From contig OY763937.1 in the NCBI GenBank assembly GCA_963667705.1, positions 515,821-579,820 of the forward strand: a stretch of 64,000 bases of DNA, in the 5' to 3' direction. Both the position numbers and the translations under genes were made by a program. This document shows, one piece after another, positions 25,339 through 47,748 of the stretch (positions within the stretch are counted from its first letter, which is position 1; each line of letters starts with the position of its first letter). The DNA is from Alphaproteobacteria bacterium. Lineage in GTDB: Bacteria > Pseudomonadota > Alphaproteobacteria > UBA828. The notes below the pieces were generated by a model, which ran no database searches, was not told where the DNA came from, and saw only the letters and a list, made by a program, of their open reading frames with translations.

Positions 25339-25444
25339 TCAAGTGGTTGACATTGGAGTCATCCAGGGTGATTGCGACGGGAGATTCGGCAAACGACTCT
25401 CTGCTGCCCATGTTGTCCGCCGTAAAGCGCGCGACGGGCCGCGA

Positions 25445-28600: not shown

Positions 28601-28612
28601 GGCCCGGCTCCG

Positions 28613-29797: not shown

Positions 29798-30059
29798 CGC
29801 TCATTCCGAGTGCGTCTGACCAGGGCTCCACCGATCCGACTGCGCCAAGCGTACAGCCCGCGGCGCCGGACGTTGCTATCCGCCCCGCTTCCTTCGTATT
29901 CGACAGCAAATCACGTGAATTGTGAGGAGGCCGAAACCGTCGCTCCAAAGTTCAGCGACGGGTTGGCTGCCGATCGCCGCCTCGCTGGGCTTGACAGTCC
30001 TCAGTGTACCCTGCCTCCGTCGTGATTCCCTGTCAGCCAGGGCGGATAGGAGGCACACG

Positions 30060-31802
30060 TCAAGCCACCGCGGATCGCGCGACTTCATTCGCGCTTGAAT
30101 CCAGTGCGCGTTGGAAGGACTCCAGCGCATCCTCCAGCCCATCTCCCCGGTAGCGAAACTCATCGGGTATGGTCTGGTAGCGCGCCTGGGCTCGCTCGAA
30201 CGACGCCTGTCTCCGATTACTGAATTCCTCCGCCTCCGAAACGCGGTCAGGCACCGCCTCTGGGAACATCTGCAGCTCGCTCCTCAGGAAGCTCAGAAAG
30301 TCATGGATGGCGATCTGCTGACGGCCGATCCGCTCGAAGTGGTGACCCATGGCCGCCAGGTAGATCGCGTCCGGCAGCATGCGGGGGTAGTCCTTGGAGA
30401 CCTTGCCGATGAACTTCGAATAGGCATGAAGCTGCTTGGCGGAGAGACAACGGCGAACGCGCATGAAGGCTGCATCGATGTCGTTCCTGCTCCTGGGCTT
30501 TCGAAGATGCCCGACGGGCTTCAGATGCCTGAACAGAGTGAGGCAGCGGCCGAAGTAATTCTCCAGGGTCGGATCGTAGAGTGTGGCGAGCACCCGTTTG
30601 TATCCCTCGATCAGTGTCCTGTAGTCCATCTCCGGCTTGAAGTTGAGAGGCATGGCATTGGTTCCGATCGGCGCCTCCAGAAGCCGGTTTTCCGACTTCA
30701 TGCGCTCGTACATGTCCGTGCCCTTCAAGGCGGTCAACAGGTAGATGGGGGCTACGGGAATGCCGGTCTCCTGGATGAACTCGATCTGGGCATCGAACAC
30801 GCCCTCGTCATCGCCATCCAGACCCAGGATGAACCCGCCTTGGACCTGCATCCCACGCTGCTGGATTTTTCGGACGGCAGTGAAGATGTAGTTTTCCTGG
30901 TTCTTGCTGGTGTTCTGCGGCTTCTTGGTCTTGAGTAAGGCCTTGGGGTTCGGGGTCTCGATACCGACAAACACGGTATCGAAGCCGGCCTCGATCATCG
31001 CATCCATCATTGCGTCCATCAGCGCAAGATTCGCACTCGCTTCCGTGGTCAGGGTGAAGGGATATCCCTTGCTCTTTTGCCATTCGGCTATCGCCGGCAG
31101 CAGGTTCATGGCATCCCGCTTGTTGCCGATGAAGTTGTCGTCAACCAGAAAGACCGGGCCTCGCCACCCCAGACGGTAGAGGGAATCAAGCTCCTCCGAG
31201 ACCTGTTCCGGCGACTTGGTGCGAGGCACGCGGCCATAGAGCTTGATGATGTCGCAGAACTCACAGTCGAACGGACATCCCCGAGAGAACTGCACGCTCA
31301 TGGTGGCGTAGTTCGTCAAGTCGATGAGGTCGAAGCGGGGAACCGGCGTCAGGGTCACGTCCGGCTTCCGTGTTTCCCGATAGATTCTCTTGGCCGTGCC
31401 GGCTTCCAGGTCCCGAAGGAAATCCGCAAAGATTTCCTCGGCCTCGTCCAGCACGAAGTGGTCCACGCCTGCGATGTCCTGGTGAAAGGTGGTCGGATGA
31501 GGCCCGCCGGCCACCACTGGAACGCCCGCGTCGTTGCAGCGTTCGACCACGGCTCGCAGCGACAAGTGTTGCGTGATCATCGTGGACGTGAACGCAAGAT
31601 CCGCCCACTCAAGATCGGCGTCGCGCAGCGTACTCACGTTCATGTCCACCACGCGGAGCGCATAGCCGGGAGGGAACATCGCGGCGACGGTCAGAAGCCC
31701 GAGAGGTGGAAAGGTCGCCTTGAGCCCCGACATCTCGAGCGCGTGGTCGGCCCCCCAGAAGGTCGGCGGCTGCTCCGGGTAGACGAGCAGAGCGTTCGGC
31801 AT
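30060..31802 (-). CDS. B12-binding-domain radical SAM protein with a C-terminal DUF4070 (class B radical SAM, methyltransferase-like)
   Basis: CxxxCxxC motif (SRGCPFDCEFCD), an N-terminal cobalamin-binding-like domain, and a C-terminal extension typical of the HpnR/BchE-like group. Confidence 0.85.
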   Translation of the reverse strand: MPNALLVYPEQPPTFWGADHALEMSGLKATFPPLGLLTVAAMFPPGYALRVVDMNVSTLRDADLEWADLAFTSTMITQHLSLRAVVERCNDAGVPVVAGGPHPTTFHQDIAGVDHFVLDEAEEIFADFLRDLEAGTAKRIYRETRKPDVTLTPVPRFDLIDLTNYATMSVQFSRGCPFDCEFCDIIKLYGRVPRTKSPEQVSEELDSLYRLGWRGPVFLVDDNFIGNKRDAMNLLPAIAEWQKSKGYPFTLTTEASANLALMDAMMDAMIEAGFDTVFVGIETPNPKALLKTKKPQNTSKNQENYIFTAVRKIQQRGMQVQGGFILGLDGDDEGVFDAQIEFIQETGIPVAPIYLLTALKGTDMYERMKSENRLLEAPIGTNAMPLNFKPEMDYRTLIEGYKRVLATLYDPTLENYFGRCLTLFRHLKPVGHLRKPRSRNDIDAAFMRVRRCLSAKQLHAYSKFIGKVSKDYPRMLPDAIYLAAMGHHFERIGRQQIAIHDFLSFLRSELQMFPEAVPDRVSEAEEFSNRRQASFERAQARYQTIPDEFRYRGDGLEDALESFQRALDSSANEVARSAVA

Positions 31803-32403: not shown

Positions 32404-35400
32404 CTACATACTCAACCCTCGACTCCTGCGGAGGTGCTTTCCGAGTTTTCGGTCCCGCTTCTCCGCCTTCTCGCGCAGCTCGCGAAGTTTCTCGGGATCG
32501 TTGAGAATATGGGCGAATCCTTTCTGGTTCTCGTCCGGATCCAGGGGCTTGGCCGACGGCCTGTCGAGCGTGTGAGCGAACCCCCGTTGTTCCCGCTCGC
32601 CCTGCCGCCCGGGCCGCTGTTCAGACTTGCGGCGCGCTTCGAGAGTGTGAGCGAAGCCTTGCTTCTGCTTGGGCGTCGGCTCGGGCCGGGACTGTGATAC
32701 CTCCGGCTTTGCGGCGCGTTCGCGGTTGTCGCGGAACCGGTTGCGCAATTGCTCCACGGTGAGCTGTGCCCGGGACCTGCCGATGGTCATGGCGTCGAGG
32801 TAGGCGCCGTACCTGTCCTCGTTGGCGAGGACGGCTTCGCCGGTGGCGGCCAGCATCTCAGCCGCCTCGCGCCATTGGGGCCAGACGTCGAGACGGCTGA
32901 TGGGAAGGCCCTGCTCGCCAGCCTGAGCCTCAAGAACCTTGTACGCCTCGACATGCCGCTCCGCGGCGGCGAGATAGCTCTCGACCGTCTCGCGCGCCAC
33001 GGTCTCGTCGTCGTGATACGCGAGAAGCTCGTCGAGCACGCCGCGTGCGCGTTCGGTCAGCTCGGGATAATCGGCGAGCGCGCGGACGCGACGGATCAGC
33101 GCGTCGTATCCGTCCATCAGCAAGAGCGGAAGATCCGGTTGCTGGGAGCGTGCGACGAGATCGTTCCAGTCGCGCTGCAGCTCCCTGTAAAGCGTTCGCC
33201 AGTCGGGCGGGGGCTCGCGTTCCGGTCCGGGCGCTGCTGCTTCCGAAGTCCGGGGCGGCAGGGACTCTTCGGGAGCGGGTGCGGCGATCCCGGCCGCTAT
33301 GGTGTCGACGATCTGCGCTTCTTCGCGCGGTGCGTCCTGGCGCTTCGCGTCTTGGCGCTGCGTGTCCTGCCGCGCCCGGTGGGCGGCCCTGGTCGTCACC
33401 GACCTGAGGTACTTGCCGGCGCGCGTGTGCTGTCTGCCGAACTCCTCGATTTCGCCCCGGCCGATACCGGCGCGCTCGGCGAGCAGGCGCTCGAACACCT
33501 GCGGACGACGGCGGAACGATGCGGCCTGCTTCATCAGCGCACCGTGCCGGCCGAGAGTCTCTCGGAAAGCCGGCGTCAGCGCCACCGCGTCGCCGTCGGC
33601 GCGCGCACGCCGGCGAAGCTCGTCCCAGGCCGCCATCACTTGCGTGCGCTCCGCCGCGAACGCGTCCACGGCGGCGCCGTGGCGCCAGCCGTTGACGGCG
33701 TGACGGATTTCCTGGGCAATGCGCATGATCGCGTTGTCGTTCACGGCCACTGGTGTCTCTACTGTCGCGCGGCCCTCGGCGGATACTGCCTGCCCTTCGC
33801 CGGGTCCCTCGCGCACCGCACCCGGCTGTCGATTTGCCCCGTTCCCGACGCCGGCCCGTCCAAGCTGCGCTTGTTCGCTCGCTTCGCGCCATGCACCGTC
33901 GGTGACGTAATCGAGCGCCGCCTCCTTGGGTTGCGAGCGCGACCAGCGCTCGGCCAGATAGGCACGGATGTCGCTGTCCAGCACCGGCCGCTCGGCCTCG
34001 TCCTCGGGGAGGCTCTCGGCGATGTCGAAGACGATGGGCGAGCGGTTGACGTAGACGTCGATCCCCTCGCGGTGCCGTGTGGCTGCCGGATAGATCGTCT
34101 CCCGCGCCGGCCGGTCGTCAATCAGCAGGAAGGCGCGGTCCACCGTCAATCCCTGGGCGGACGCGATGGTCATGGCATAGCCGTAGTCGAGACGGATGTT
34201 GTCGTGGTAGTCGCGGATCTCGTCATGGCGGAACTCCACGCATCGCCCGTCGTCGGTGCGCGCGGTGATCTGAACCGATATCTCTGGTTCGGGCTCGCCC
34301 CTGTCCAGATGCGAAGCCCGCCCGGCGCGGCCACTGGCCAGCCGGTTGCGGGCTTTGCGCGTGACCGCCGCGCCTTCCACCTGCCGCGCCTCGATGTCCT
34401 CGACGGTGACCACCGTGCCGTTGAAGAGCTGCTTCTCCCACTGGGTGGCGCCGATGCGCAGCCGGTCGCCCACCGCGATCTCCAGCGGCTCGGTGACCCG
34501 CCCGTCGAGGTCGCGGCTCACCTCGATCACCGCGCGCTTGATGTCCGTCCGTTCTCCGAGCACGCGTTCCCGCATCAACCATGACAATGCGCGCGCCTCG
34601 GCCTTCGTGCGCGCCAGCACCACGGCGGATTTTTCGGGCTCGTCCTTCACGAGCCGCGCCCAGTCGTCGACCAGGCGCCTCAGCGTCTTCTCCTCGTCGT
34701 AGCAGAGATGGAGCCGGCCCCTGAGCCGCCACGCCTCGATCGCCTGCGCGGCTTCGCCGTCCCTGAGCGCTTCGGAGACCGCAACCTGCCACGGCGTGAA
34801 CAGCGGTTTGCGATCCATCGCCTCGTACTCGGCCATGATGGCGTCGCGTTCCTGCGAGCTCGTGAGTCCCGCCCTGAACCGCGCTTGCTCCGGCGTCTCC
34901 CTGTGGACATGGACGAGCACGTCCTCGAGGTCTGCTTTCTGGCGCCGGATGCGGTCGACGCGGACGCTGCCGGCGACGTCGCGGATCAACCTGAGCCCCG
35001 GACCCGCCTCGACCGGCTGCTGTTGCCTGGTGTCGCCGGCGAACACCACCTTGGCGCCGTGGCGCTCGCAGAGCTGCAGGATGTGATGCGCCTGGCGCGT
35101 GGACAGCATCCCTGCCTCGTCCACCACGATCAGGGTGTTGCGGTCGACCTCGAGTTGCCCCTTCGCCGCGAGCTTCAGCAGCTTGTCGACGCAGTAGGGA
35201 CGCGCGTCGCAGTCGTCTCCCAGCGCCACCGCCGTACGCCACGCGACGGCGGTGGGCACGATCTCGTAGCCGTGCTCCCTGTGCAGGTCGGTGATGGGCC
35301 GGAGCGTGGTGGTCTTGCCAGACCCCGCCGCGCCCTCGATCACGGCCACACGGCCGCCCATCGCGGTGGCGTGCCGGATCGCCAGAGACTGCTCCTGGCT

Positions 35401-36735
35401 CAAGGGATAGCCGCCGGCCAGGAGCGTCTCGACCTTGTGCCTGACCGCATCCTCCGGAATCCCGTGGCCGGTATCGGCGGCCATGGACGATGCCATGTCC
35501 TTCACCGCCTGTTCGAGGCCGAGGTTGTGGCGGGTGGAATAGATCTCGGTATGGGCCATGCCCGCCAGCGACTCCGCCGTGGGCTTCTTGGGCTCCAGCC
35601 GCTCGATCTCGGGGTTGCGGCGCAGCCGCTCGATGGCGGTCTTCAGAGCCTCGGGGCCGATCAGGCCGGCCGCCGCATTGGCTGCCGCCTCCACCATGTC
35701 GGGGCGCCGGAACACCGCCTCTTCCCGGGCCAGGTGGGCGGGAAGGTCGTCGAGCCGGGCGGTCAGCTCCCGGATTTCTTCTCGTCCGATCCCGGCCTCG
35801 CGGCCGGTCACGGACCGGATCAGCTCTTCGCGCTCGACAAAGCCCTGCGCCTCCTCGCGCCAGCGCCCGTGGCGTACCTCGGGATCGTTGTCGTGGGACT
35901 TGCCCGCCCGCGTCAGCTTGTTGACGCCCGCCATGCGCGAGGCGTTGCCGCGCGACGGAATGCCCAGCTCTCCGGCCTTGGCAACGATCGTCTTGCGCCG
36001 CTTCGACCAGAAGACCTGCAAGTCTTCCGGCATGCCCTCGATCCGGGTGAAGGCGGAATCGGGACCGTACTGCTCTATCCGCACGCCCAGACGCTCGCGC
36101 AGGTTCCAGGCCAGGGCGTTGCGGTAGACCGCGCCCGCAGCCTTGGCCCAGCTGTAGACCGGGTACTGGTGCATGGCCCGCCACTTGCCGTCCTCCTGCG
36201 TCCGGGCCGCGTTGAAGATGACGCAGTGGGTATGGAGCTGCGGGTCGTTCTCACGGCTGGTGCCGTGCTGGAACATCGCCGCCGCGATATCGGCAGGCAG
36301 GGCCCTGATCCGTCCCTCTCTGTCCCGGATCCGCGTATACGAGCAGTAGCGGAGCACCGTCTCTTCCAGGGCCACCCGGGCGGCGTCGTTGTGCGCCTGC
36401 TCGATCTCACCACGCAGCTCGGGATCGGCGACGGCCCAGAGCGCGGACACGCTCTTGTCGGCCGAGAAGGTCATGTCGAGTCCCGCCGAGCGGTTCTCGC
36501 TGCCTGCGTTCCTGGTGAGTTTCTGGGACCCGTCCGGCGCGAAGCCGTGGTAGAGCCGGTGGAAGTCGCTGCTGTCGACCTTGCCGCCGTTCTCGAGGCC
36601 GAGCAGGCCCGCAGGATTGAACCAAACCCCGTCCGGCTCCTCGCCGGCCGTGTAGTACTCGTTGGGATGGCGGAACGAGCGCTGGCTCTCCAGGTAATAG
36701 GCGGCAGACGCGGCCTGCGCGAGGGTGGCTACCAC
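32404..36735 (-). CDS. traA: Conjugative relaxase-helicase TraA (MobF/TrwC family, Ti-plasmid type)
   Basis: The N-terminal relaxase domain has histidine-triad-like HTHCVIFN and YY motifs. A central RecD-like helicase carries Walker A (GAAGSGKTT) and Walker B (VVDEAGM). 1443 aa. GTG start. Confidence 0.9.
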   Translation of the reverse strand: MVATLAQAASAAYYLESQRSFRHPNEYYTAGEEPDGVWFNPAGLLGLENGGKVDSSDFHRLYHGFAPDGSQKLTRNAGSENRSAGLDMTFSADKSVSALWAVADPELRGEIEQAHNDAARVALEETVLRYCSYTRIRDREGRIRALPADIAAAMFQHGTSRENDPQLHTHCVIFNAARTQEDGKWRAMHQYPVYSWAKAAGAVYRNALAWNLRERLGVRIEQYGPDSAFTRIEGMPEDLQVFWSKRRKTIVAKAGELGIPSRGNASRMAGVNKLTRAGKSHDNDPEVRHGRWREEAQGFVEREELIRSVTGREAGIGREEIRELTARLDDLPAHLAREEAVFRRPDMVEAAANAAAGLIGPEALKTAIERLRRNPEIERLEPKKPTAESLAGMAHTEIYSTRHNLGLEQAVKDMASSMAADTGHGIPEDAVRHKVETLLAGGYPLSQEQSLAIRHATAMGGRVAVIEGAAGSGKTTTLRPITDLHREHGYEIVPTAVAWRTAVALGDDCDARPYCVDKLLKLAAKGQLEVDRNTLIVVDEAGMLSTRQAHHILQLCERHGAKVVFAGDTRQQQPVEAGPGLRLIRDVAGSVRVDRIRRQKADLEDVLVHVHRETPEQARFRAGLTSSQERDAIMAEYEAMDRKPLFTPWQVAVSEALRDGEAAQAIEAWRLRGRLHLCYDEEKTLRRLVDDWARLVKDEPEKSAVVLARTKAEARALSWLMRERVLGERTDIKRAVIEVSRDLDGRVTEPLEIAVGDRLRIGATQWEKQLFNGTVVTVEDIEARQVEGAAVTRKARNRLASGRAGRASHLDRGEPEPEISVQITARTDDGRCVEFRHDEIRDYHDNIRLDYGYAMTIASAQGLTVDRAFLLIDDRPARETIYPAATRHREGIDVYVNRSPIVFDIAESLPEDEAERPVLDSDIRAYLAERWSRSQPKEAALDYVTDGAWREASEQAQLGRAGVGNGANRQPGAVREGPGEGQAVSAEGRATVETPVAVNDNAIMRIAQEIRHAVNGWRHGAAVDAFAAERTQVMAAWDELRRRARADGDAVALTPAFRETLGRHGALMKQAASFRRRPQVFERLLAERAGIGRGEIEEFGRQHTRAGKYLRSVTTRAAHRARQDTQRQDAKRQDAPREEAQIVDTIAAGIAAPAPEESLPPRTSEAAAPGPEREPPPDWRTLYRELQRDWNDLVARSQQPDLPLLLMDGYDALIRRVRALADYPELTERARGVLDELLAYHDDETVARETVESYLAAAERHVEAYKVLEAQAGEQGLPISRLDVWPQWREAAEMLAATGEAVLANEDRYGAYLDAMTIGRSRAQLTVEQLRNRFRDNRERAAKPEVSQSRPEPTPKQKQGFAHTLEARRKSEQRPGRQGEREQRGFAHTLDRPSAKPLDPDENQKGFAHILNDPEKLRELREKAEKRDRKLGKHLRRSRGLSM

Positions 36736-36913
36736 TGCGGGCCTCGCACAGCGTTTCGTCCGGGAGCGATCCAGCAGACGGGCGACGGCACCCCGTCCGG
36801 CACCGGCATGATGACCATCTCCATCGGAGGCGAATCTCTCATGAACGTCAGACCCTTACACGTATTGACGGAACATTGTGCTGTCCATGTCGTACCATAT
36901 AGGCTATGTATCC

Positions 36914-36946
36914 CGGCACAGCGCACCTTGGTGCATAGGTGTGCCG
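36914..36946. promoter_or_regulatory. Candidate oriT inverted repeat (CGGCACAGCGCACC/TTGGTGCATAGGTGTGCCG) in the traA-traC divergent intergenic region
   Basis: A nested palindrome in the region where Ti-type oriT sites lie, between divergent traA and traC. Confidence 0.3.
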
Positions 36947-37061
36947 AGTCACATACGCAAACATCAGTAGACCGTCAACGAAATTCAACATCGGAGCGAA
37001 GAATCGCGCCAGGCTTGCGGGCCGCACAAAGACGGAAAGCGCTCGCTTGCGTGCGGAAGCC

Positions 37062-37448
37062 ATGGCGGTCTTGACCGAGTGGAGGGCGCGGAGGATCATG
37101 CGCAACGCTCTGGAATCGCTAAACTTTGCGGACGGAGGAATCATGGTGGTCAGGCGCTACAACGAATCGGACATCGACTTCGAGGCCATCGATGCGGACC
37201 TTGCGAAGCTGGCGCCGCCAAAGCTGAGCCTGAAGGACGTGCTGGACCGCTTGCGGGAGCGCATGCTCGAGCAGCGGGCCAGGGGCGTGACGGTGGCTCA
37301 GATGCACGAGGTTCTGAAGGCGCGCGGCATCGAAATGGGTGAGCGCAGTCTCAAGGCGTTCCTCGACAAGGGAGAGCTGCCGGGACGCAAGGCGGCGAAG
37401 GTCGCGGCGCAGATCGGCGGCGGGGATTCGGAGGGAGATCCCTTCTGA
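37062..37448 (+). CDS. Small relaxosome accessory-like protein (TraC/TraD-position gene), divergent from traA
   Basis: Position and orientation match traC of Ti-type Dtr modules. No sequence motif recognised. The start is uncertain (ATG 37062 or 37098). Confidence 0.35.
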   Translation: MAVLTEWRARRIMRNALESLNFADGGIMVVRRYNESDIDFEAIDADLAKLAPPKLSLKDVLDRLRERMLEQRARGVTVAQMHEVLKARGIEMGERSLKAFLDKGELPGRKAAKVAAQIGGGDSEGDPF

Positions 37449-37824
37449 GCTGACGGCAGGTGATGGCGCGCAAGCGCCGAGCCGGATACCGGGACAGACG
37501 CATAGCGACGATTCAGAGCGTCGAGCCGGGGACGGCGATGCGTCGTGCGCAGCACGGCGAGCCGTGGGGCGGTGCCTGACACACACTCTATTGGAGATGA
37601 AGCAGGCGAGCGTTCGGCGAAGCCGCGCATGCGGCGAGCCGGGCGCGAGGCTGCGGCGGACCGAAGGGCAACAGGCGGCAACGGGAGAGCGCGAGCGGCG
37701 AAGCGAAGCCGCTTATGCGGCGAGCTCGCCGCGATGCGCGACGGCGGGCACGGAGCAGGAATAGAAGGCCGGTCCCTCGCCGAAGCAAAGGACCGACCTC
37801 GATGGCGAAGAGGAAAGCGCCGCC

Positions 37825-38760
37825 TCATGCGCGCCAGACCGGGATACCCATCTGCCGGGCCTTGTCCATCAGGTTGCCGGTGACGCCGCTGCCGGCGAAG
37901 GCGATCACGCCCTTGGGCAGCAGGTCGAGCAGCGCGTCGTTGCGGCGGAACGGGGCGGCGCGTCCGTGCGCCTTCCAGTCGGGGCGGACGATCACCTGGT
38001 CCACGCTGCGGGCCTCGGCCCACTTGGCCGCCACCGTCTCGATGCCGGGGGCGCCGCCGTGGACGAGGACCATGTTGCCGTGCTTGGCGCGGGTGCGGTC
38101 GAGGACGCTCCAGACGGCGGCGGGGTCTGTGACCTCCTTGCCGCCGGTGACCGCGACCAGGGTGCCCTCCGGCACGTGGCTGCTGATCTCCCGGTCCTTG
38201 CGGGCGCGCCTGTAGTCCCGCGCGTCGATCGCTGCCGAGGTCAGCGTTCCGGTCTTCGAGGTATGCGATCCGTTGCGGGGGCGCCACACGTCGCCGGTCT
38301 CAGCGCGGTAGGCGTCGGCGGCGGTTTCGCGCAGTCTCTCGAAGGCGTCCCTGCGGTCGCCGAGATTGCGCGCGCGGTCCGTGAGGAGCTGCAGCTCCCA
38401 GGCCTTCACCTCGGTCCCGTCCTGGGCGGTCTCGAGGTCCTTCATCTCCGGGGTAATGCGGTCCACCGCGCGGTCGAGGCGGCCGATCTGTGCATGGAAG
38501 CAGTTGACGATGCTCCAGAGGAGCGCCTCGCGCTCGTCGGCCATCTGGGTGCCGTCCACGGTGATGCCTTCCACCATGATGCGGATGGCCTCGCCGAGCG
38601 CGCCGGTGGCGTCCTCTTCGTCCCAGATCTCCCGGCTGTCGATCTCACCGCGCTCAGGCGCTGTGCCGTAGAGTGCTGCGTTCTCGCAGATGGCGGCGGT
38701 CTGTGAAGCGGTTGCGGTGTCCTGGTTCGTGTCGATCATGTCGACCTCCCTTTCGTTCAT
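37825..38760 (-). CDS. Hypothetical protein with a C-terminal SLOG/DUF2493-like nucleotide-binding-fold domain, recalled as common on Rhizobiales ICEs and plasmids
   Basis: The C-terminal region LVAVTGG...VLVHGGAPG...IAFAGSGVTGNLM resembles YspA/DUF2493-type SLOG domains. Confidence 0.4.
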   Translation of the reverse strand: MNEREVDMIDTNQDTATASQTAAICENAALYGTAPERGEIDSREIWDEEDATGALGEAIRIMVEGITVDGTQMADEREALLWSIVNCFHAQIGRLDRAVDRITPEMKDLETAQDGTEVKAWELQLLTDRARNLGDRRDAFERLRETAADAYRAETGDVWRPRNGSHTSKTGTLTSAAIDARDYRRARKDREISSHVPEGTLVAVTGGKEVTDPAAVWSVLDRTRAKHGNMVLVHGGAPGIETVAAKWAEARSVDQVIVRPDWKAHGRAAPFRRNDALLDLLPKGVIAFAGSGVTGNLMDKARQMGIPVWRA

Positions 38761-38824
38761 CCTCCGGGGCGGTGCGCCCCGTCGTGATGCGTTGTTGGGA
38801 CACGCGCCCGCAGGGCCGGCACCT

Positions 38825-39095
38825 TCTCCTAGAGTTTCTTGGACCGGATTCGGTGCGGAAGATGCCCGATTTGGTGCGGAAGTCGGCGTTCTCAGGGTCT
38901 GGGAGGGCCGGCGCGCCGCGTTGCCGGCTTGCCGCGTTACGAGTAGGCCTTCTTCAGGACTCTAGCGCCGGCCCGACACGCCGGCCCCGCGCTGAGGGGC
39001 CGGCGTGCCCCACGCGAGGCGTTGGAGGGTTCAGGCAAGCCGACTTCACGGTCGGGCATCTTCACGGCCGGTCCTAGAAACTCTTGGAGAAGGCC
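38825..39095. repeat. Imperfect palindrome of about 270 bp with roughly 60-bp arms and internal GGTGCGGAAG direct repeats
   Basis: Left arm CCTTCTCCTAGAGTTTCTTGGACCGG...GGTGCGGAAGATGCCCGA...GGTGCGGAAGTCGGCG matches the reverse complement of the right arm (CGACTTCACGGTCGGGCATCTTCACGG...CCGGTCCTAGAAACTCTTGGAGAAGG). Confidence 0.6.
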
Positions 39096-39362
39096 GGAAC
39101 GGAGCGCAGCGGAGTGGAGGACCCGCAGGGTTGTCGGACCGAGGACGCGTGGCACAATGGCGGATCACGACGGGGTACGACCTCCCTCTCGACACGCTCG
39201 ACATCCCTTGTTGTTTCTTTCGCTGCCAGCGCATTTGCGGGATGCGGCGGGGAGGGGAACAGGGACTCCGATCTAGCTGCATGAAAGGAGGGAGCGGCCT
39301 GCCGTCGGGGTATGACGGAGGCTCGCTCCCAAGGTCGGAAAGGAGAATAGCGGTGCGCGCCG

Positions 39363-39731
39363 TCACCGCGCACTGGAGAACGCGGGATGCACCGGCGGCG
39401 AGGTCCAGGGCACGAGGTCGCGGTCGACCAGCATGCGCGCGACGGTTGGCTTGACGGCGTCGCGGTCGTCGAGCAAGCGGGGACCCCGATGGTCATCGAA
39501 CAGGTGAAGAGCATAGTAGAACCGGCCCGGCTTCGGGCTGGCGATGTCGGGGCGCTTGCTGACCGTTCCCACCGTCTGATCGAAGACCACGATATCGCAT
39601 TCATGGTCGAGGCGCCAGCGGAAGCGGATGTCACGGATCGAGAAGTCGCAGCTCGACATGGCGTGTCTCCGGGGAGGAAACGGGAGCGCGAGCGCGCGCT
39701 TGGGCGCGCCGCGCCCCGGTCGTTGACACAT
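39363..39731 (-). CDS. Hypothetical small protein
   Basis: ORF with reasonable composition in the conjugation-module region. No motif recognised. Confidence 0.3.
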   Translation of the reverse strand: MCQRPGRGAPKRALALPFPPRRHAMSSCDFSIRDIRFRWRLDHECDIVVFDQTVGTVSKRPDIASPKPGRFYYALHLFDDHRGPRLLDDRDAVKPTVARMLVDRDLVPWTSPPVHPAFSSAR

Positions 39732-39800
39732 GAGGAAGGGCCGGTCCCGAGACCCTGGGGAAGGGCGGGACCGGCCCGGAGACGGGAGGGAGGAACCCGT

Positions 39801-40253
39801 CTAGAAAGGTACCGTGCCGCTGTCGAGTGCGTCGGTAGCGGCGGCCGCAACCGGCGCCGCTGCCTCACCGTTGGGGGCCTTGGCACCGCTGCCGTTGTGC
39901 GTCGCCGGGCGCTCCAGGAACTGGATCCGTGAGCCCGGAACGAGGATGATCTCGGTCGAGTAGCGGTCGCTGTCCTCGCCCTCCTTGCGCCACTTCCGGG
40001 TCTGCAGCTTGCCCGCGACGTAGACCAGCCGCCCCTTCTTCGCGTGCTTCTCCAGCATGTCGATCAGGCCGCTCTGGAAGCTGACGACCCTGTGCCACTC
40101 CGTCCTGTCGACCCTCTGGCCGGTCTTGTCGATGAAGGACTCGTCGGTCGCTACCGACATGTTGGCGACGCGCCCGCCGGAGGCGAGGCTGTTGATGGCG
40201 ACGTCGGCGCCCAGGCGCCCGATGATCTGCGCGGAGTTCAATCCGAAGGACAT
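39801..40253 (-). CDS. ssb: Single-stranded DNA-binding protein (SSB)
   Basis: OB-fold N-terminus (IIGRLGADV...WHRVVSF), a Gly/Ala-rich tail, an acidic C-terminal end, and an AGGAGA RBS 6 nt upstream of the ATG at 40253. Confidence 0.6.
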   Translation of the reverse strand: MSFGLNSAQIIGRLGADVAINSLASGGRVANMSVATDESFIDKTGQRVDRTEWHRVVSFQSGLIDMLEKHAKKGRLVYVAGKLQTRKWRKEGEDSDRYSTEIILVPGSRIQFLERPATHNGSGAKAPNGEAAAPVAAAATDALDSGTVPF

Positions 40254-40617
40254 TGTTCGTCTCCTCATATCCAGGTTTCTGACGATGGGTGACGAGCGGA
40301 CCGGGGACACTCTCTCGACCCCCTCCCTGCTCACTCTTCGCGAAGCCCTTCTCGAACTCTCCTCTGCCGCCTGCCTCGACGGTCACGGGACAGGCGCGGA
40401 GCTTGCGGACCTCGCGGACCGTACGGATGACGGCGCAGGATGCCGTGAAGGCCGAGTGGCGTCGGTTTACGACGGCGCGGCGCCGGGGTCGGAGGAACGG
40501 GTGGAAGCGGCCGCACCCTCGCGGCGCGAAGCGCTGCACGTGGACACGGGGTGGGGCGCGGTCTCGGTGGCCGATTACCGCGTCCCCCCAGCAGCAGCCC
40601 CGGCGCCGGCGAGCGGG

Positions 40618-41427
40618 TCAGGACCAGGCCGCGTAGCGCGTCATCGCGGAGGTGTCGGACATGATCTCCACCTGGTCGTGTCCGAGCCCGGCGAAGACCA
40701 GGCAGGCGGCCACCTCGGCCTCTGAGTCGAAGCTGCCGTGACAGACTCCGGTGTCGATCTCGATCACCGTGAAGCGCGCGGGCCAGGCCGGCAGCCCGCG
40801 GTGCTCGGACGAGCGCACGTAGCTGCGCCGCGCGCAGGGCTCGCATCTGGATGCGTTCCCGGCCGGGGCGCTGCATTCGGTGCACAACTTCCTGGCGCGC
40901 CGACGCCAATATATCTTCCGGGCGTAATCCCTGCGCGACGGGCGGCCCGACTGTAGCCTGGCGCAGGCCTCGCAGCGCGCGGCGCCATCGGGCACGGGAT
41001 CGCCGCACGCGCCACATCGGCCATCGAAGCGGCGTGCAGCCCAGCGCTGCTTGTCGCCGTCGTTTCGCCTTGACCGGCAAGGCTCGCAGCGGCTGCTCCC
41101 TTCGGTGGGCGGGCGAACGCCGCACCGGACGCAGGCGCCGGCGGCGTGGCGCTCGTGGTAGCGCCTCTTGCTGCCGGCGCGGGCGTTGCGGCGCTTGGCC
41201 TCTGCGCGCTTGCCGCCGTAGAGGGCACCGGAGGCCTTGGCCCGGGCGTATCTGGCGCGGTCCGCCCTGCGCCTCCTCTCGCCGCATTCGGCACAGAGGC
41301 GGCGATCGGCCTCGGGCGGGGCTGCTCCGCACTTGGGGCATGTCCCCGCTGCGATCCTCTCCTCAGCCAGGCGCCTGTCCCGCTCGCGCTTGCAGCGGCG
41401 CCGCTTCTCCGGATCCCTGGCCGGCAT
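40618..41427 (-). CDS. Hypothetical protein with four tandem CxxC...CxxC zinc-ribbon repeats and a C-terminal globular region
   Basis: Repeats CPKCG..CAECG, CVRCG..CEPC, CGACG..CEAC and CTECS..CEPC, each followed by an Arg-rich spacer. GGAGGA RBS 7 nt before the ATG at 41427. Confidence 0.5.
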   Translation of the reverse strand: MPARDPEKRRRCKRERDRRLAEERIAAGTCPKCGAAPPEADRRLCAECGERRRRADRARYARAKASGALYGGKRAEAKRRNARAGSKRRYHERHAAGACVRCGVRPPTEGSSRCEPCRSRRNDGDKQRWAARRFDGRCGACGDPVPDGAARCEACARLQSGRPSRRDYARKIYWRRRARKLCTECSAPAGNASRCEPCARRSYVRSSEHRGLPAWPARFTVIEIDTGVCHGSFDSEAEVAACLVFAGLGHDQVEIMSDTSAMTRYAAWS

Positions 41428-41513
41428 CCGACGATCCTCCGTGCCATGGTGCAGGTGACGGGGATGGGGGGGCGGCCGGAGCGCCCGTATCGGACGCCCC
41501 CGCCGAATGCCTG

Positions 41514-41840
41514 TCAGCGCTGGCGCGACATATGACCCCAGACAGCGAGGCAACCCCAGTATTGCACCCCGCTGTCTTCGAGGTTCACGGCGGTGCAGAC
41601 GATGATCTCGTCACGCGCGGGCCGCATCTGCTTGACGTTGCTCAGGCTGGTGACCGTGTTCCGGGACCGGCGCCTCTTCTTCCCCCGCGCGGGGGGCGTG
41701 GCGATCGGCACGGGACTGATCTCGCCGTCGGCGGACGAGTGGAAGCGCTCGACGACATACTTGTCGCCCTCGAGGCCGCGCCCGAAAATATGAACGAGAA
41801 ATGTTTCGGTGTTGCCGCGCTTCGCGCCGCCGATCTGCAT
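41514..41840 (-). CDS. Hypothetical small protein (108 aa), upstream of and co-oriented with the zinc-ribbon protein
   Basis: GGAGGG RBS directly upstream of the ATG at 41840. The longer ORF upstream of this start has junk-like composition. Confidence 0.4.
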   Translation of the reverse strand: MQIGGAKRGNTETFLVHIFGRGLEGDKYVVERFHSSADGEISPVPIATPPARGKKRRRSRNTVTSLSNVKQMRPARDEIIVCTAVNLEDSGVQYWGCLAVWGHMSRQR

Positions 41841-42998
41841 GACTCCCTCCGCCAGGTGGATGGTTGGAAGCTGCGGGACCGCCTCTCTCCCCGAGCGCCG
41901 CCTCCGCCGCGCTCCGTCCCGGCCTTCCTCTTCCTCCCGAGGAAGCTCAAGCGGCGGGTCGCAGAGAAAAAATGCGGGTGCCGCTTCGGCGCATGTCGTC
42001 TCTTTTCGCGTATGCCGCGGGGTGCAGGATTGGCCCGAACGAAGGTGCCTTTCAATTGCGAACGTTCCGCCTACGTTCGCCTGTATGGATACTCTCGATC
42101 GCTCCATCCGTGACTTGAATCCGGCTCGTCCGAAGCGCTCCGGGCTCTCAGGCCGGCGCTTCGGGGTGCTCGGCGAGCCCGCCTTCGCCGCCTTGCTCAT
42201 GCACGCGCCCACAAGCCCGGATGCTCGGGGCGAACCGTCCCGCGGGTACGGATCATGGCTCATGCGCGGCAGATTGTGTCTGCCGATGTTCTCGTTTTGT
42301 AAGTGGACGAATTTGCGAACGGCAAATTCGTCCATTCCCGGGCCTTCGAGGTGCCGCTCCAATGCACCGCGACTGTCGCGGGCAGAGGACGGCACTGGCA
42401 TGGGCAAGACGCGCAACGGCTGGCTGACCACGGAGCAGGCGGCGGCGCACGTGGCGTCGAGCTCGCGCACCCCTGAGCGCGATCAGGCGCGGCGCGGCGG
42501 GCCAGCCTGTGTCTGCTGTTGCGAGCGCGTGCACGAGCTGCGGGACGACCTCGACAGCCGCATCGCGGAGGACGAGCGCCCCGCCGCCGCCGACTCGAAG
42601 GACGATTGCGGCCGCGACGGGAACGAAACCCGAAAGGCAAAAAAAATAATTCGGTGTATGGAAGATCCTTAAAGCGTCGACATGGGCGGACATGAGCGGA
42701 CATAAGCGGACATATGAGGGCAGCAAGCTATTGACATCGAACGGGTTCCTCCGGGTGTCACCCTTGAATCAATTGGTTCCCCTGACCATTTTCAACGACC
42801 GGACGGAGGTGTGGGGGCGATGTTAAGCGCGGCAAGTCCCGATTACATGAACGAGCTTCTCACCGGTCTCTTTGTTGGTGGCGCCGAGAGACCGGGATCG
42901 CAGGCGGTGGGGGCTGGAGGCGTCGCGCGGACCGGGCACAAGCCGTGCCGCTGCCGACCGATTGAGGCGCCATTCTCGAATGAGGGGAGATACACACA

Positions 42999-44975
42999 AT
43001 GAGAACCGTCGAACTGTCCATTTGCGCCCTCCTGCTCGCCGCAGGCGGAGGCTGGGCGATCTGGCTCACAACCGGCTACAGGCCGGACGACATCGCCGCC
43101 GCCGGTCTCGCGCTCGCGGCCGCGGCGTCGCTGGTGACCTTCTTCGTGACCGACCGCAAGCGCTCCGGAGACTGGATCCGCTTCGGCATCTACAGCGCGG
43201 GCCTGTCGGTGTCGGTGGCCTCGTTCTGGACCGCCATCGTGCGCCCCTTGGGGAACGTCCGGTGGCCCGATGGTGCCCTGGACTGGCTCCTTGGGCTCGA
43301 AGGGGCCGGGCTGGTCCTGCCGGTGCTCTCGATACCCGCCGTCATGGTGCTGGCCCTGCTCTGGGGCGGGGCGGCGGTCCACGTGATCAGGCATCCCGGC
43401 GGCGGTGAGCGGCGCCGCCGGGCGCGGTCCGACCTGCACGGCAGGGCCGCGCTGCTTGACCGGCGCTCCATGCGCCGGCTGACGAAGGGACGGGGCATCC
43501 TGCTCGGACAGTCGGGGGCGCGCAGGAACGACAGGTTGATCGCCTGGCCCCTCGAGGGCTCGGCCATCACCGTCGCCCCGCCCCGCGCAGGCAAGGGCGC
43601 GCTCATCGCGCTCAACCTGCTCTCGCCCGAGGGGCGCGGCTTCGACGGCTCCACCGTCACCATCGACCCGCGCGGCGAGCTCTGGTGCATCGCCTCGCGG
43701 CGGCGCCGCGAGATGGGCCGGCGCACCGTGCTGGTCGATCCCTTCGGCGTGGTGAACAAGCACAAGGAGGATTTCGGGGCGTACCACCTGCCGGAGGTGG
43801 GGAACTCCAGGTACAACCCGCTCTCCTTCATCCGCGATGACGAGGGCCTCGCGGTGCGCGACATCAACGTGCTGCTCGACGCCCTGCTGACGCCGCCCAG
43901 AGCGGGCGGGCCCGAGAACAGCAGGCACTTCTACGAGTCCGCCCGCGCCATCATCGCCGGATACATCGCCTGGGTGCGCTTCCGCGAGCCGCGCGAGTTC
44001 CAGACCCTGGGCATGGTCCATCGCATGCTCTCCATGGGTCTGGAGGAGCGGGAGGAGTTCTCGGAGCTGGTACGGCGCACGGAGCGCTTCGCCGGCGGGC
44101 TCGCGCACATCGCCGTCGAGCGCCAGGCGCAGGTGGGCAAGGAGGAAGGCGGGTCCAACTTCAGCACCGTCGCCAACCAGCTTTCCTTCCTCAACTACCC
44201 GGAGCTGCTCGCCGGCACCGACGGGACGGACTTCGATCCGCTGATGCTGGCCGACGGCGACACCGACCTGTTCGTGGTCGTGCCGGAGGATACCGTGGAG
44301 CACGTCAAGGGCTGGCTCCGCCTCTGGGTCGCGATCCCCAACGCCATCGCGAGCATCACGCCGCTTGAGCGCGACATGCTGATCGTGATCGACGAGATGC
44401 CGAGGCTCGGCTACCTGAAGCCGGTCATGGACGGCTACACGATGGCCGCCGGCAAGGGGGTGCACTTCTGGTGCTTCGCCCAGTCGATCTCGGCGCTGGA
44501 CTCGACCTGGGGCAAGGAGCACCGCAAGACCCTGCTGGACCTCGCCGAGGTGGTTCAGATCCTGGGCTTCCCGCGCACCGACGCGGAGGGGGCGGAGGCG
44601 ATGTCGAAGGCCATCGGCACCGCCACCTATGAGGGGCGGACCGAGAGCCGCTCGGGCACCGTCTCCGACAGCGGCGGCGTTGCAGGCAACGCGCAGTGGC
44701 AGGCAGGAGAATCCTTCGGCCTCGTGCGCGAGCGTCTGGCGACGCCGGACGAGCTGATGACGCTGGCACCGGACCGGCAGTACGTGATCGGTGCGGCCAA
44801 GGACATCAAGCGCGACGCGCTCTATCTCCATCACGCGCGTTACTGGGAGCGGCCGGACACGTACTACCTTGCCGATCCCAACCCCTACGTGCTGCGCAAG
44901 GAGCGGGCGGCGGCCAACGCCGCTGCGGGCAGTCGATCGAGCCGGCCGATGACGGCCGCAGGAGGCATGCGATGA
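42999..44975 (+). CDS. traG: Type IV coupling protein TraG/VirD4 family (conjugal transfer ATPase)
   Basis: N-terminal TM helices, Walker A (PPRAGKGA), Walker B (LIVIDEMPRLG), and TraG/VirD4-like length and architecture. Confidence 0.9.
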   Translation: MRTVELSICALLLAAGGGWAIWLTTGYRPDDIAAAGLALAAAASLVTFFVTDRKRSGDWIRFGIYSAGLSVSVASFWTAIVRPLGNVRWPDGALDWLLGLEGAGLVLPVLSIPAVMVLALLWGGAAVHVIRHPGGGERRRRARSDLHGRAALLDRRSMRRLTKGRGILLGQSGARRNDRLIAWPLEGSAITVAPPRAGKGALIALNLLSPEGRGFDGSTVTIDPRGELWCIASRRRREMGRRTVLVDPFGVVNKHKEDFGAYHLPEVGNSRYNPLSFIRDDEGLAVRDINVLLDALLTPPRAGGPENSRHFYESARAIIAGYIAWVRFREPREFQTLGMVHRMLSMGLEEREEFSELVRRTERFAGGLAHIAVERQAQVGKEEGGSNFSTVANQLSFLNYPELLAGTDGTDFDPLMLADGDTDLFVVVPEDTVEHVKGWLRLWVAIPNAIASITPLERDMLIVIDEMPRLGYLKPVMDGYTMAAGKGVHFWCFAQSISALDSTWGKEHRKTLLDLAEVVQILGFPRTDAEGAEAMSKAIGTATYEGRTESRSGTVSDSGGVAGNAQWQAGESFGLVRERLATPDELMTLAPDRQYVIGAAKDIKRDALYLHHARYWERPDTYYLADPNPYVLRKERAAANAAAGSRSSRPMTAAGGMR

Positions 44976-45712
44976 CGACGAAAAGGCCAAGGATGCCGAA
45001 CGGCATCGACCGGGACGCGGATCGTGAGACGCGGCCCGTGAACGGGCAGCGGCACGAGGCGTGGAGAGAATCCCGCGGCGGCAATGCCGGGACGGACGAA
45101 GCTGCGGGCGCGGCCAGGCCCGGTTCGCGCAGCAACCCGCGGCAACCGGCATCCTGCTTCGGGGTGATTTTCGCCGCGACGGGTAAGCGCGTCGGCGATG
45201 TGCGGGTACGCAGCGCAATGCCGCATATGGAGCGCTACTTCCGGGGGCTGCTCGACGAGCAGGGACGGCTTGGACTGCCGCCGCCGCAGGCGGCGCAGGA
45301 AACCGCGGTCGAGCCGGCAGAGGCGCCCGGTGGGGGCGCCGCCTGTATGGAAGCGCCGCCCGAGCCGCCGCGGGACGAGGCTCATGAGCCCTGTGAGGCG
45401 GCGGTGAGTGCGACGGCGGAGTTGAAGGCCGTGCTCCTGACCTTCAAGGCCGACTTCGTGCGCTGGACCCGGAACGAGAGGCGGGGCCGCAGGCGCCGGG
45501 CGGGTCTCATGATGGCCGCCGGCTTCCCCGCCTGTCTCCTTCTCGGCCTTCTGATCCAGGTGCAGTTCGAGGTCGTTCCCCCGCACGACCCCACCAGCGG
45601 CTGGGGCAAGCACATCCAGGACACCTACGGCCGGACCATCGGCAACTGCGAGATCGAGGCGATGCTGACGAAAAGCGAGGTCGATTGTCTGCTGACGGTG
45701 GGTCGGCCGTGA
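44972..45712 (+). CDS. Hypothetical protein, translationally coupled to traG (ATGA overlap)
   Basis: The ATG overlaps the traG stop. Contains a C-terminal hydrophobic segment. Confidence 0.35.
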   Translation: MTTKRPRMPNGIDRDADRETRPVNGQRHEAWRESRGGNAGTDEAAGAARPGSRSNPRQPASCFGVIFAATGKRVGDVRVRSAMPHMERYFRGLLDEQGRLGLPPPQAAQETAVEPAEAPGGGAACMEAPPEPPRDEAHEPCEAAVSATAELKAVLLTFKADFVRWTRNERRGRRRRAGLMMAAGFPACLLLGLLIQVQFEVVPPHDPTSGWGKHIQDTYGRTIGNCEIEAMLTKSEVDCLLTVGRP

Positions 45713-45778
45713 CGGCGGCGGAGAGAACGCGGCGGGGAATGCGGCCCCGTCCCGAACGAAACAGAGGGAGATATTGCC

Positions 45779-45991
45779 ATGAGCATCGGTAAGGTGCGCG
45801 AGCTGCTGCGCCGCGAGGAGGTCGAGAAGCGCTACAGCGTCTCGCGAAGCTGGATCTACAGTCAGATGCGCGCCGGGCGCTTCCCGGAGCCGATCAGGAT
45901 CAGCCTGCGCGCCGTGAGATGGCGGGTGGTTGACCTCGACAAGTGGGCCAAGGAAAGGCCTGTCGCGCACGGAGAGATCGGCCAGCGCTGA
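45779..45991 (+). CDS. alpA: AlpA-family helix-turn-helix regulator (prophage CP4-57 type, excisionase-like)
   Basis: 70 aa with the VSRSWIYSQMRAGRFPEPIRIS motif characteristic of AlpA/MerR-like phage regulatory proteins. Confidence 0.8.
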   Translation: MSIGKVRELLRREEVEKRYSVSRSWIYSQMRAGRFPEPIRISLRAVRWRVVDLDKWAKERPVAHGEIGQR

Positions 45992-46983
45992 TCGACGCCG
46001 GCGATGTGCTCACCTGCGCAAACGATCGAATAAGCGCGATCGATCCGGGTAATCGTCGACAATCCGACCCGGTGCGTTCGCATGTTCAGGGAAAAGGACT
46101 CGCACGGTCGGCGCCTCACGCGCGGTGGCAGCGCCCGAATTCGGTACGAGGCCAACCCGCAAGGTCCTCCATGTTCCGATCCGCCTTGTTGGGCGGAATG
46201 TGGGGCCGATCGCCGGCAAGACGAGAAAGCGGCGCCTACGCAGTGAGTTATCCGAGGCGAAGGCTTCCACTCCCATAACCATCGGATAAGCCCCAATGAT
46301 GCTGCACGGCGTCCGACGCACGACTCAAGGCGGAGGTAGTGGTTAGCCTATTCCCTCCTGGAAGACTTTCACCCGCTACCCAACTGCCAGTTAGCTTCGT
46401 GCACAGACTTCCTGACCCCGTGCTGGAAGGTTACGGCCTTGCCCATTAGCCATGATATTGAAGTCGAGGGCATATCTCCTGCCATCAATCTCCGTGATCA
46501 AATGCGGCGCGGCTGCCACTTCCAATTTTGAAACGATGGGACATTTCGAGCCGGAGCCGCTCCAGGTAACCGGAAAGCCGCAGAAATCGACGCTTTCCTC
46601 TCGTCTGGCAAGCGGGCGCCTTATGCAAACCGTGTCATCTCAAATTGGCAGAGTTCAGAAAGTCTGAGGTTATCGGCGTTGCCGCACTCGTCGTCATCTT
46701 CCAACGCTGGTGAGTCGATCACCGCAGTCTATGGAGATTGACTAGACCGTCACCTCAATGTATTGACCCGGTGAGTCAATTTAGAGCGCTTGGCATTATC
46801 AGCTTGCACTTGCGGGACACAGCAATAGGATGCAGGCGACGGAAACGTACAGATTATCGGTGACCGTGAATGGGCATCCACCCGCGGTAACCCGGCCAGT
46901 TCCTGTACTACTTCGAATTTGCGTTGAGTCTGCACAAGATGGCGCGTCGGTGAGCCTTTGCAGCGTAAGGGAGACAAGTCATT

Positions 46984-47397
46984 ATGGCCGTATTTTCTGA
47001 AACAGAATGTAGGCATTGCGGGAGCAAAGACCATGCTTCAGATGATTGCCCGCACGATCATGGCTTCTTAGGCATCGGAGCATCAACTGAGTGCGCTCAC
47101 TGCGGAAGCAAGGAGCATTCAACCGAAAACTGTCCGCATGATCGTGGTCTCTTAGGCATCGGTGCATCAAAGGTGTGCGCCCACTGCGGAAGCAGAGAAC
47201 ACGCATCAGATTGCTGTCCGCATGATCACGGGCTTTCAGGTGTCGGTGGATCGACGCAGTGCGCTCACTGTGGGAGCAGCAACCATGCGTCGGATGATTG
47301 CCCGCACGATCATGGTTTCTTAGGCATCGGTGCATCAATTGAGTGTGCTCACTGCGGAAGCAAGGAGCACGCGACAGAAGATTGTCCACATGAGTAG
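46984..47397 (+). CDS. Protein made of five tandem CCHC zinc knuckles (CX2CGX3HX4C, retroviral-nucleocapsid/CNBP type), each followed by a PHDHGFLGIGAS linker
   Basis: The translated sequence shows five repeats of CAHCGSKEHxxxxCPHDHGxLGIGAS. GGGAGA RBS upstream of the ATG. The antisense ORF is a shadow of the repeat. Confidence 0.7.
   Translation: MAVFSETECRHCGSKDHASDDCPHDHGFLGIGASTECAHCGSKEHSTENCPHDRGLLGIGASKVCAHCGSREHASDCCPHDHGLSGVGGSTQCAHCGSSNHASDDCPHDHGFLGIGASIECAHCGSKEHATEDCPHE
47008..47394 (+). repeat. 81-bp tandem DNA repeat, about 4.8 copies, encoding the zinc-knuckle units
   Basis: Direct reading of the sequence. Confidence 0.8.
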
Positions 47398-47748
47398 TCG
47401 GTTGATCAGAGCCACAGGTCAGTACTCTCCCAGCGCATCGGTGGCAGGGTGCGCCATCCTCGTCCTGTTTGCCGGGCCCGCAGAGTGCCGCGGTTTTTCA
47501 CCGTTGCAAGCGATACTCGCGGGCCCCTTCGGTGAGGCATTCCGAGGCACCGCGTTGTCCCGAGGAATCCATGAACGCACATACACGCCCCTTAGCTGGG
47601 GCTGGGGAGGGGTTCGGCTTGCCCCGACGGTCGTACGGTGGCGAAGGCAGGAGGAAGCGGCGGATCGGTTCGTCCGCGACGACACGCGTCACCTTGGGAG
47701 ATCGGCAACGGCCAAGAAGGCTTTTCACCGATGCGTAAGCTGGTCGGA

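Follow-up and report, generated by a model that had tools for sequence, protein, structure and literature searches.

A predicted five-zinc-knuckle protein without a membrane anchor, carried as cargo by a mobile element in an alphaproteobacterium

The stretch of DNA analysed here (contig OY763937.1 of an Alphaproteobacteria bacterium; ‘the window’ hereafter denotes the whole stretch of 64,000 nucleotides) contains a mobile element, and within it lies a small gene whose 137-residue product consists of five tandem CCHC-type knuckles, which are predicted zinc-binding modules. This protein belongs to a bacterial family of five-knuckle proteins, nearly all of them membrane proteins, in which it is a rare member for lack of a membrane anchor. 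The open reading frame (ORF) is preceded by an in-frame stop codon at 46966–46968 and by a Shine–Dalgarno-like motif (Table 1). After the octapeptide MAVFSETE, the five units follow one another to the end of the protein. Every unit reads C-x2-C-G-x3-H-x4-C, with P-H directly after it, all 20 zinc ligands are present and the frame is uninterrupted by any frameshift. A search of the whole window in all six reading frames finds the pattern CX2CX4HX4C five times, each time in this ORF and at an exact spacing of 28 residues, which places the knuckle pattern far beyond chance. The five knuckles recognised in a preliminary description of the locus, made from the sequence before this analysis, are thus confirmed, and the ORF is a genuine small gene.

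The units recur every 84 bp, or 28 residues, according to both Tandem Repeats Finder (period 84, 4.4 copies, 72% matches) and a separate repeat finder (spacing 84), rather than every 81 bp or 27 residues as first described. Nor is the repeat near-perfect, as had been thought. Pairwise DNA identity among the units is 68–83%, with 4–13 synonymous codon differences per pair. Between units, synonymous differences reach a proportion of 0.39–0.98, compared with 0.07–0.20 for non-synonymous ones. Near-saturated synonymous sites combined with low non-synonymous change indicate old copies under purifying selection, and the recent repeat expansion that had been proposed is thereby ruled out. The ORF has a GC content of 54% and a GC content at third codon positions of 0.48, against about 0.9 in the neighbouring backbone and chromosomal genes. 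Its product is strongly acidic, with a net charge of about −13, an isoelectric point of 5.6 and 21 acidic versus 7 basic residues; of the 137 residues, 16 are Cys and 18 are His.

An antisense ORF of 135 residues (46982–47389, minus strand) stays open through the entire repeat. It was considered as a true gene and rejected, as conservation, ligand retention and the excess of synonymous over non-synonymous change all belong to the plus frame; we regard it as a side effect of the repeat. Because this ORF starts with GTG, looking up its product gave no information. One weak terminator-like site, at 47446, is similarly uninformative.

The zinc-knuckle assignment was examined by profile, structure and model comparison. 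The three best Pfam models for the window protein are all zinc-knuckle models, namely zf-CCHC_3 (20.5 bits, gathering cut-off 27), zf-CCHC (18.9 bits, cut-off 20.8) and the AIR2-like ZnK4 (17.2 bits, cut-off 27). Among its relatives, zf-CCHC and zf-CCHC_3 match 11 of 15 at E ≤ 0.01 (best 4.7e-9 and 9.2e-11), and zf-CCHC matches 20 of 38 at E ≤ 1e-4, with a best value of 3.4e-16. The zf-CCHC match anticipated in the preliminary description is accordingly found in the relatives, but stays just under threshold in the window protein itself. Judged from these profile matches, the assignment holds at the family level, and each module is predicted to bind one Zn2+ through its Cys-Cys-His-Cys ligands. 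The best sequence matches of solved structure are yeast Air2 (3nyb_B, E 1.2e-3; 2lli_A), followed by a retroviral nucleocapsid protein (2a51). AlphaFold2 reached a pLDDT of 50.7 with eight sequences, and a pLDDT of 77.9 with a pTM of 0.60 when given a 38-sequence family alignment; in the latter model, every unit shows a helix of three residues that lies between its His and its final Cys. The top Foldseek matches of this model are the knuckles of Lin28 and the HIV nucleocapsid, below significance.

Other searches with the window protein were negative. The NCBIfam scan returned noise-level matches only, the metallothionein and metallochaperone families of Pfam and NCBIfam gave nothing beyond noise, and the PADLOC defence models gave no match. 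PHROGs yielded two weak matches, both to families of unassigned function (E 0.002–0.004).

Relatives were sought by an exhaustive profile search and counted as cluster representatives, of which there are 778 at E ≤ 1e-3, 136 at E ≤ 1e-10 and 84 at E ≤ 1e-30; a word-indexed search retrieved only eight. The earlier statement that such arrays are rare in bacteria therefore stands insofar as the gene is uncommon, but the array belongs to a coherent bacterial family rather than standing alone. Further down the list than about E 1e-22, the matches give way to proteins that have many generic knuckles and lack a predicted membrane helix. The best 91 representatives were analysed. Exactly five knuckles occur in 78 of them, and five units are the ancestral, conserved state of the family, a further argument against a recent expansion. 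The unit period is mostly 22 residues, with 26 or 28 residues in subfamilies, and the unit consensus reads C-x-[HRK]-C-G-S-[KTR]-[EDN]-H-[AS]-[TS]-x-[DN]-C-P-H-G-[IFL]-[FL]-S-S-[KE]. The residue at knuckle position 2 is S, A, R or G, that after the ligand His is A or S, and a His directly after C-P, additional to the four canonical ligands, is kept in 88% of units. The net charge of the array has a median of −2.6 and a minimum of −12.7, so that the window protein, with about −13 for the whole protein, lies at the acidic extreme.

Transmembrane helices are predicted in 89 of the 91. In 72, an N-terminal array is followed by one to five predicted helices, while in 17 the helices come first and the array is C-terminal. 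These C-terminal arrays end in a characteristic manner: 16 of the 17 stop at C-P-H (in one case C-P-Q) plus at most one residue, and the remaining one has a longer tail. The only two representatives with no predicted helix both carry other domains. Partner domains in the members scanned include YARHG, SH3_3/SH3_4, SPOR, LprI, RCC1 and WD40 propellers. Since the arrays have no signal peptide and carry predicted thiolate zinc sites, and periplasm-type domains lie beyond the membrane spans, the array would sit on the cytoplasmic face of the membrane with the partner domains on the periplasmic side.

Genome matches come from Pedosphaera (Verrucomicrobiota), three Bacteroidota, two Acidobacteriota and one Chloroflexi (Chloroflexota) metagenome-assembled genome (MAG). 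Two further relatives (P0005 and P0006) lie on contigs from metagenomes (656 kb and 481 kb), the former among ordinary bacterial neighbours, and no family relative was found in viral contigs. Most N-terminal arrays are followed by a conserved membrane domain of four to five helices with the pattern …WLAVNVVLP..LLNSA…GG.YM.LDI.NGWFS..FV.NVV…, seen in P0002, P0011, P0021, P0052, P0063, L005 and L006. With no consistent Pfam match, it seems to be a membrane domain that has yet to be annotated. The precomputed Pfam annotation of relatives P0004, P0008 and P0020 includes a more recent accession, PF27939 (DUF8363), which may already cover the bacterial knuckle repeat. Literature searches on bacterial or prokaryotic zinc knuckles and on DUF8363 found no relevant paper.

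Within this family, the window protein belongs to the subfamily with a 28-residue period, in which an H-D-H motif is frequent; the second extra His of this motif is not conserved, the position being occupied by H, R, S, Q or K. Its match to P0020, a protein of five knuckles, one transmembrane helix and an SH3_3 domain, extends over all 137 residues with no gap (69% identity, E 6e-71). It is 73% identical to L011, again along its full length with no gap, and 67% identical to L012, each with five knuckles, one transmembrane helix and an LprI-like domain, and 67% identical to the Pedosphaera protein (L003), in which N-terminal transmembrane helices precede a C-terminal four-knuckle array. Against L011 and L012, the proportion of non-synonymous differences (0.15–0.18) is far below that of synonymous ones (about 0.8), which indicates long-term purifying selection.

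What sets the window copy apart from these tethered relatives (P0020, P0011, P0021, L005, L006, L011), with which it shares the five units, the N-terminal start and the C-G-S...H...C-P-H pattern, is that it has neither a transmembrane helix nor an extra domain. The maximum 19-residue hydropathy of the protein is 0.34, giving no transmembrane segment, and a tblastn search of 45900–48000 with the regions that lie outside the knuckles in the best family representatives detected no remnant of an anchor. The downstream ORF at 47390–47797, which overlaps the knuckle gene through an ATGA, was considered as a split-off anchor and dismissed: it has no family match and no convincing transmembrane helix, and does not resemble the anchors of the relatives. 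The protein begins M-A-V-F-S-E-T-E-C, as N-terminal arrays do, and ends C-P-H-E-stop, as C-terminal arrays do. With a native start and a native end it is a cleanly delimited, self-contained array, which has either lost its anchor or never had one.

Independent anchorless arrays were found in L008, L009 and L014. That of L008, an Acidobacteriota MAG, has 111 residues. In the Chloroflexi MAG L009, a three-knuckle ORF (1548–1751) ends in CPH-stop and is followed after 90 nt by a separate gene (1841–2440) for a small membrane protein with one N-terminal transmembrane helix; the two genes together may represent the anchored architecture in split form. On the metagenome contig L014, a five-knuckle gene with a product of 111 residues (3383–3718) stands directly upstream of a gene with an Mrr-like restriction-endonuclease domain (3785–4384) and near a MazE/MazF-like pair (5056–5708), a neighbourhood that looks like an accessory or defence-type one.

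Among the family members examined, only the window copy lies on a mobile element, for which it is cargo. The element comprises a TrwC-type relaxase/helicase, the single-stranded DNA-binding protein SSB, a type IV coupling protein (T4CP) and a regulator of the AlpA family (Table 1), and relatives of its AlpA and T4CP are found mostly in Alphaproteobacteria and Rhodospirillales MAGs. Over roughly 46000–53300 the GC content falls from about 0.67–0.73 to 0.52–0.60, and the earlier placement of the gene in a low-GC islet of a mobile element, near AlpA and the coupling protein, is borne out. Two related elements help to delimit this region. The first, a metagenome element (L010), is 93% identical over 42947–46274 and diverges beyond 46274. 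The second (L018) matches the window at 33799–41936 (84%), 50040–53227 (96%) and 52995–53450 (97%), and lacks 41936–50040, with no T4CP, AlpA, knuckle or 741-residue lipoprotein gene; an insertion sequence (DDE_Tnp_1) lies between the stretches that it shares with the window. Set against these two, the element proves to be a mosaic over 41936–53462. The array-boundary ends of the knuckle protein, its atypical low-GC codon usage and the lack of its segment in two related elements together point to horizontal acquisition.

Table 1 Features of the knuckle gene and the surrounding mobile element (window coordinates)
Feature	Position	Strand	Basis or remark
Protein-coding gene, anchorless five-CCHC-knuckle protein, 137 aa	46984..47397	+	ATG start, stop TAG 47395–47397; ORF list and sequence
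Shine–Dalgarno-like GGGAG, 10 nt before ATG	46969..46973	+	Read from sequence
Knuckle unit 1: CRHCGSKDHASDDCPHDHGFLGIGASTE	47008..47091	+	
Knuckle unit 2: CAHCGSKEHSTENCPHDRGLLGIGASKV	47092..47175	+	
Knuckle unit 3: CAHCGSREHASDCCPHDHGLSGVGGSTQ	47176..47259	+	
Knuckle unit 4: CAHCGSSNHASDDCPHDHGFLGIGASIE	47260..47343	+	
Knuckle unit 5: CAHCGSKEHATEDCPHE	47344..47394	+	End matches the family's natural C-terminal array ends
TrwC-type relaxase/helicase	32404..36735	−	Pfam PF08751, E 8.5e-68
SSB	39801–40334		
Type IV coupling protein (T4CP)	42999..44975	+	Pfam PF02534, E 1.2e-39
AlpA-family regulator, element backbone	45779..45991	+	Pfam PF05930, E 9.4e-12
Segment not found in two related elements; knuckle gene and 741-aa TbpB-like lipoprotein gene	46275..50039		Homology to L010/L018
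Low-GC variable cargo region	46275..53450		52–60% GC apart from a GC-rich stretch (≤ 0.72) at ~49200–49800; window 67%
TbpB-like lipoprotein paralogues	47749–49974, 50206–51111, 51264–52802	−	PF01298

The homology of both related elements to the window ends at about 53450–53462, which is probably the right end of the element. No integrase and no left end were located. Rfam identified a single RNA gene in the whole window, a tRNA-Gly (GCC) at 59767–59841 on the plus strand; lying about 6 kb past the probable end, it is not obviously the integration site. A search of a plasmid collection with 42000–53300 gave no match. Most of the low-GC island is filled by three paralogous lipoproteins with a TbpB-like C-terminal β-barrel (PF01298). 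In the 741-residue lipoprotein there is a metalloprotease-like HELGH motif, and three copies of an internal repeat of about 64 residues lie within the GC-rich stretch. The 513-residue one combines a lipobox (LAAC) with a repeated linker rich in Gly, Asp and Ser. On the other side, a biosynthetic-looking cluster (15381–31802) adjoins the relaxase; it includes a 2351-residue type I polyketide synthase (KS-AT-DH-ER-KR-ACP), an 831-residue fusion of a reductase and a sulfotransferase, an RND pump together with its adaptor and a radical SAM enzyme that has B12-binding character.

The window array has much in common with the CCHC knuckle class (PF00098, PF13917) represented by the HIV-1 nucleocapsid, CNBP/UMSBP and Lin28, namely the CX2CX4HX4C ligand spacing, the Gly after the second Cys, the Pro after the last Cys and the tandem arrangement; the short helix that the model predicts between these ligands may be a further likeness. 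The differences concern the residues that surround the ligands. Knuckle position 2 is A or R, where nucleocapsid and CNBP have an aromatic residue, and the position after the His is A or S rather than hydrophobic. The bacterial knuckles have Ser at position 6, which is variable in the class, and Asp, Glu or Asn before the His, where the class has Gly; in addition, they have a conserved His of their own after C-P and linkers of the form G-hydrophobic-hydrophobic-S-S, and the bacterial relatives are attached to membranes. Charge differs as well, at about −13 for the window protein against +10.6 for the nucleocapsid reference sequence and +3 for that of CNBP.

Yeast Air2, a component of the TRAMP complex, has five knuckles, the same number as the window protein, and its ZnK4 (CTLCKSKKHSKERCP) lacks the aromatic residue of position 2, as do the window knuckles. 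Air2 illustrates that such an array can bind RNA, through ZnK2–4, as well as a protein, Trf4, through linker 4 plus ZnK5 (PMC3384339). The likeness is limited to the knuckle motif, as the window protein has neither the IWRxY linker motif of Air2 nor its N- and C-terminal regions, and the Air2 knuckle region, unlike the window protein, is basic in its RNA-binding part. We know of no Trf4-like partner in bacteria. In general layout, the relatives of the window protein resemble the ‘zinc-ribbon – TM – extracytoplasmic domain’ proteins of bacteria and the zinc-binding anti-sigma factors (ZAS), in which a small cytoplasmic zinc module is joined by a membrane span (TM, transmembrane) to a variable domain beyond it. 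The zinc motif is a different one, though, with no sigma-factor gene adjacent and no conserved neighbour, and the window copy lacks the membrane span.

Taken together, we favour, with slightly better than even confidence, the view that the gene encodes a small, soluble, acidic cytoplasmic protein of five knuckles, an anchorless member of the bacterial family that was acquired horizontally as cargo. At low certainty, it may act as a zinc-dependent interaction module. Each of the five modules would fold around one Zn2+, and the folded array might then bind a cytoplasmic partner. Because the knuckles are not basic and have no aromatic platform, in contrast to those of nucleocapsid and CNBP, this partner is more likely, at low certainty, to be a protein or a metal than a nucleic acid. 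The free copy would have its site of action in the cytoplasm and might engage the partner that the tethered versions bind.

Several observations weigh against this proposal. The window protein scores under every Pfam gathering cut-off. A conserved pair of hydrophobic or aromatic residues in the linkers is compatible with nucleic-acid binding, as is the fact that the RNA-binding knuckles of Air2 likewise have no aromatic residue at position 2. An all-against-all comparison of nine loci revealed no conserved neighbour besides the knuckle genes themselves and so offers no functional clue. No sigma-70-like promoter was detected upstream of the gene, an observation that is in itself uninformative. 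Finally, the exact product is missing from a collection of 15 billion proteins; AlpA, T4CP and two lipoproteins of the same 4.15-Mb contig are present there, so the knuckle gene was apparently not called on that contig.

Of the alternatives, one put forward in the preliminary description is a single-stranded nucleic-acid binder or chaperone that serves the element, with the five knuckles binding transferred single-stranded DNA or RNA in the manner of nucleocapsid, CNBP/UMSBP or Air2 ZnK2–4. The ligand spacing and profile matches do fit a nucleic-acid-binding class, Air2 as the closest solved sequence match binds RNA, the linkers of the family carry the hydrophobic or aromatic residues mentioned above, and a relaxase, SSB and T4CP are encoded by the same element. 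Yet the acidic charge and the missing aromatic platform leave a nucleocapsid-like role unsupported, the residue after the His is small, and the relatives, which are membrane proteins, show neither a connection with mobile elements nor a conserved gene neighbourhood. In addition, two closely related elements lack the gene, which is consequently not part of the transfer core. We therefore consider this role distinctly improbable. A metal buffer or metallochaperone, in which the array reversibly binds zinc, or Ni, Cu or Co through the extra His of CPHDH, for storage, sensing or delivery, would suit the high Cys and His content, the widely kept His after C-P and the frequent H-D-H motif. Tandem metal-binding modules on membrane proteins also have a precedent in heavy-metal P-type ATPases. 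Cys3His knuckle sites, on the other hand, are normally structural and of high affinity, the second extra His is not conserved, metallothionein and metallochaperone profiles stay at the noise level, and the partner domains of the relatives (SPOR, SH3, LprI, YARHG) are not metal-related, so that we rate such a function as unlikely. The metal-binding peptide that the preliminary description also raised finds neither support nor contradiction here.

It is also rather unlikely, in our estimation, that the gene is a non-functional passenger, that is, a fragment of a membrane-protein gene caught up in the mosaic recombination of the cargo region and no longer expressed. The idea draws on the architecture of the closest relatives (P0020, L011 and L012), which have a transmembrane helix and a periplasmic domain where the window copy has neither, and on the position of the gene in a recombination hot spot; the codon usage is atypical for the host, and the lack of a detectable promoter and of the product in the public protein collection would fit as well. 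A decaying fragment is nonetheless difficult to reconcile with an intact ORF that retains 20 of 20 ligands, has both of its ends precisely where native arrays have theirs, is preceded by a Shine–Dalgarno-like motif and shows no trace of the missing domains downstream, or with anchorless arrays having arisen independently in at least three other lineages. As to a multi-core precursor of a Cys-rich ribosomally synthesised and post-translationally modified peptide, or a secreted metallophore-like peptide, the repeated Cys-rich unit might bring one to mind, and NCBIfam gives a weak match to a thiazolyl-peptide precursor family. This match (E 0.44) is noise, though, no leader or signal peptide is present at a maximum hydropathy of 0.34, no modifying or maturation enzymes are encoded nearby and, in homologues, the array forms one domain of a large membrane protein; the family architecture effectively refutes such a precursor, which we regard as extremely improbable.

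A more speculative extension, to which we assign only a slim chance, is that the mobile element took up the array on its own to serve as a soluble effector, which might, to the advantage of the element, bind the transferred single strand or RNA, or titrate a host partner of the tethered proteins. The family would then be a prokaryotic counterpart, and possibly a relative, of the arrays of the Air2/CNBP type, tethered to the cytoplasmic membrane and to periplasmic domains that bind the cell wall or ligands.

CCHC zinc knuckles are usually regarded as a domain of eukaryotes and retroelements. Herein the tandem array, a known domain type in a bacterial architecture for which no paper was found, is seen to form a coherent bacterial family, with 84 clusters at E ≤ 1e-30 in at least four phyla in addition to the present high-GC host, and to be joined almost always to transmembrane helices. 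The picture of the locus also changes: the repeat is ancient and selected, and a nucleocapsid-like chaperone role is unlikely. Since the window copy is an array that already occurs in nature free of a membrane part, it is the easiest member of the family to express and test, and the family as a whole provides a handle on the roles of tandem knuckles outside RNA metabolism.

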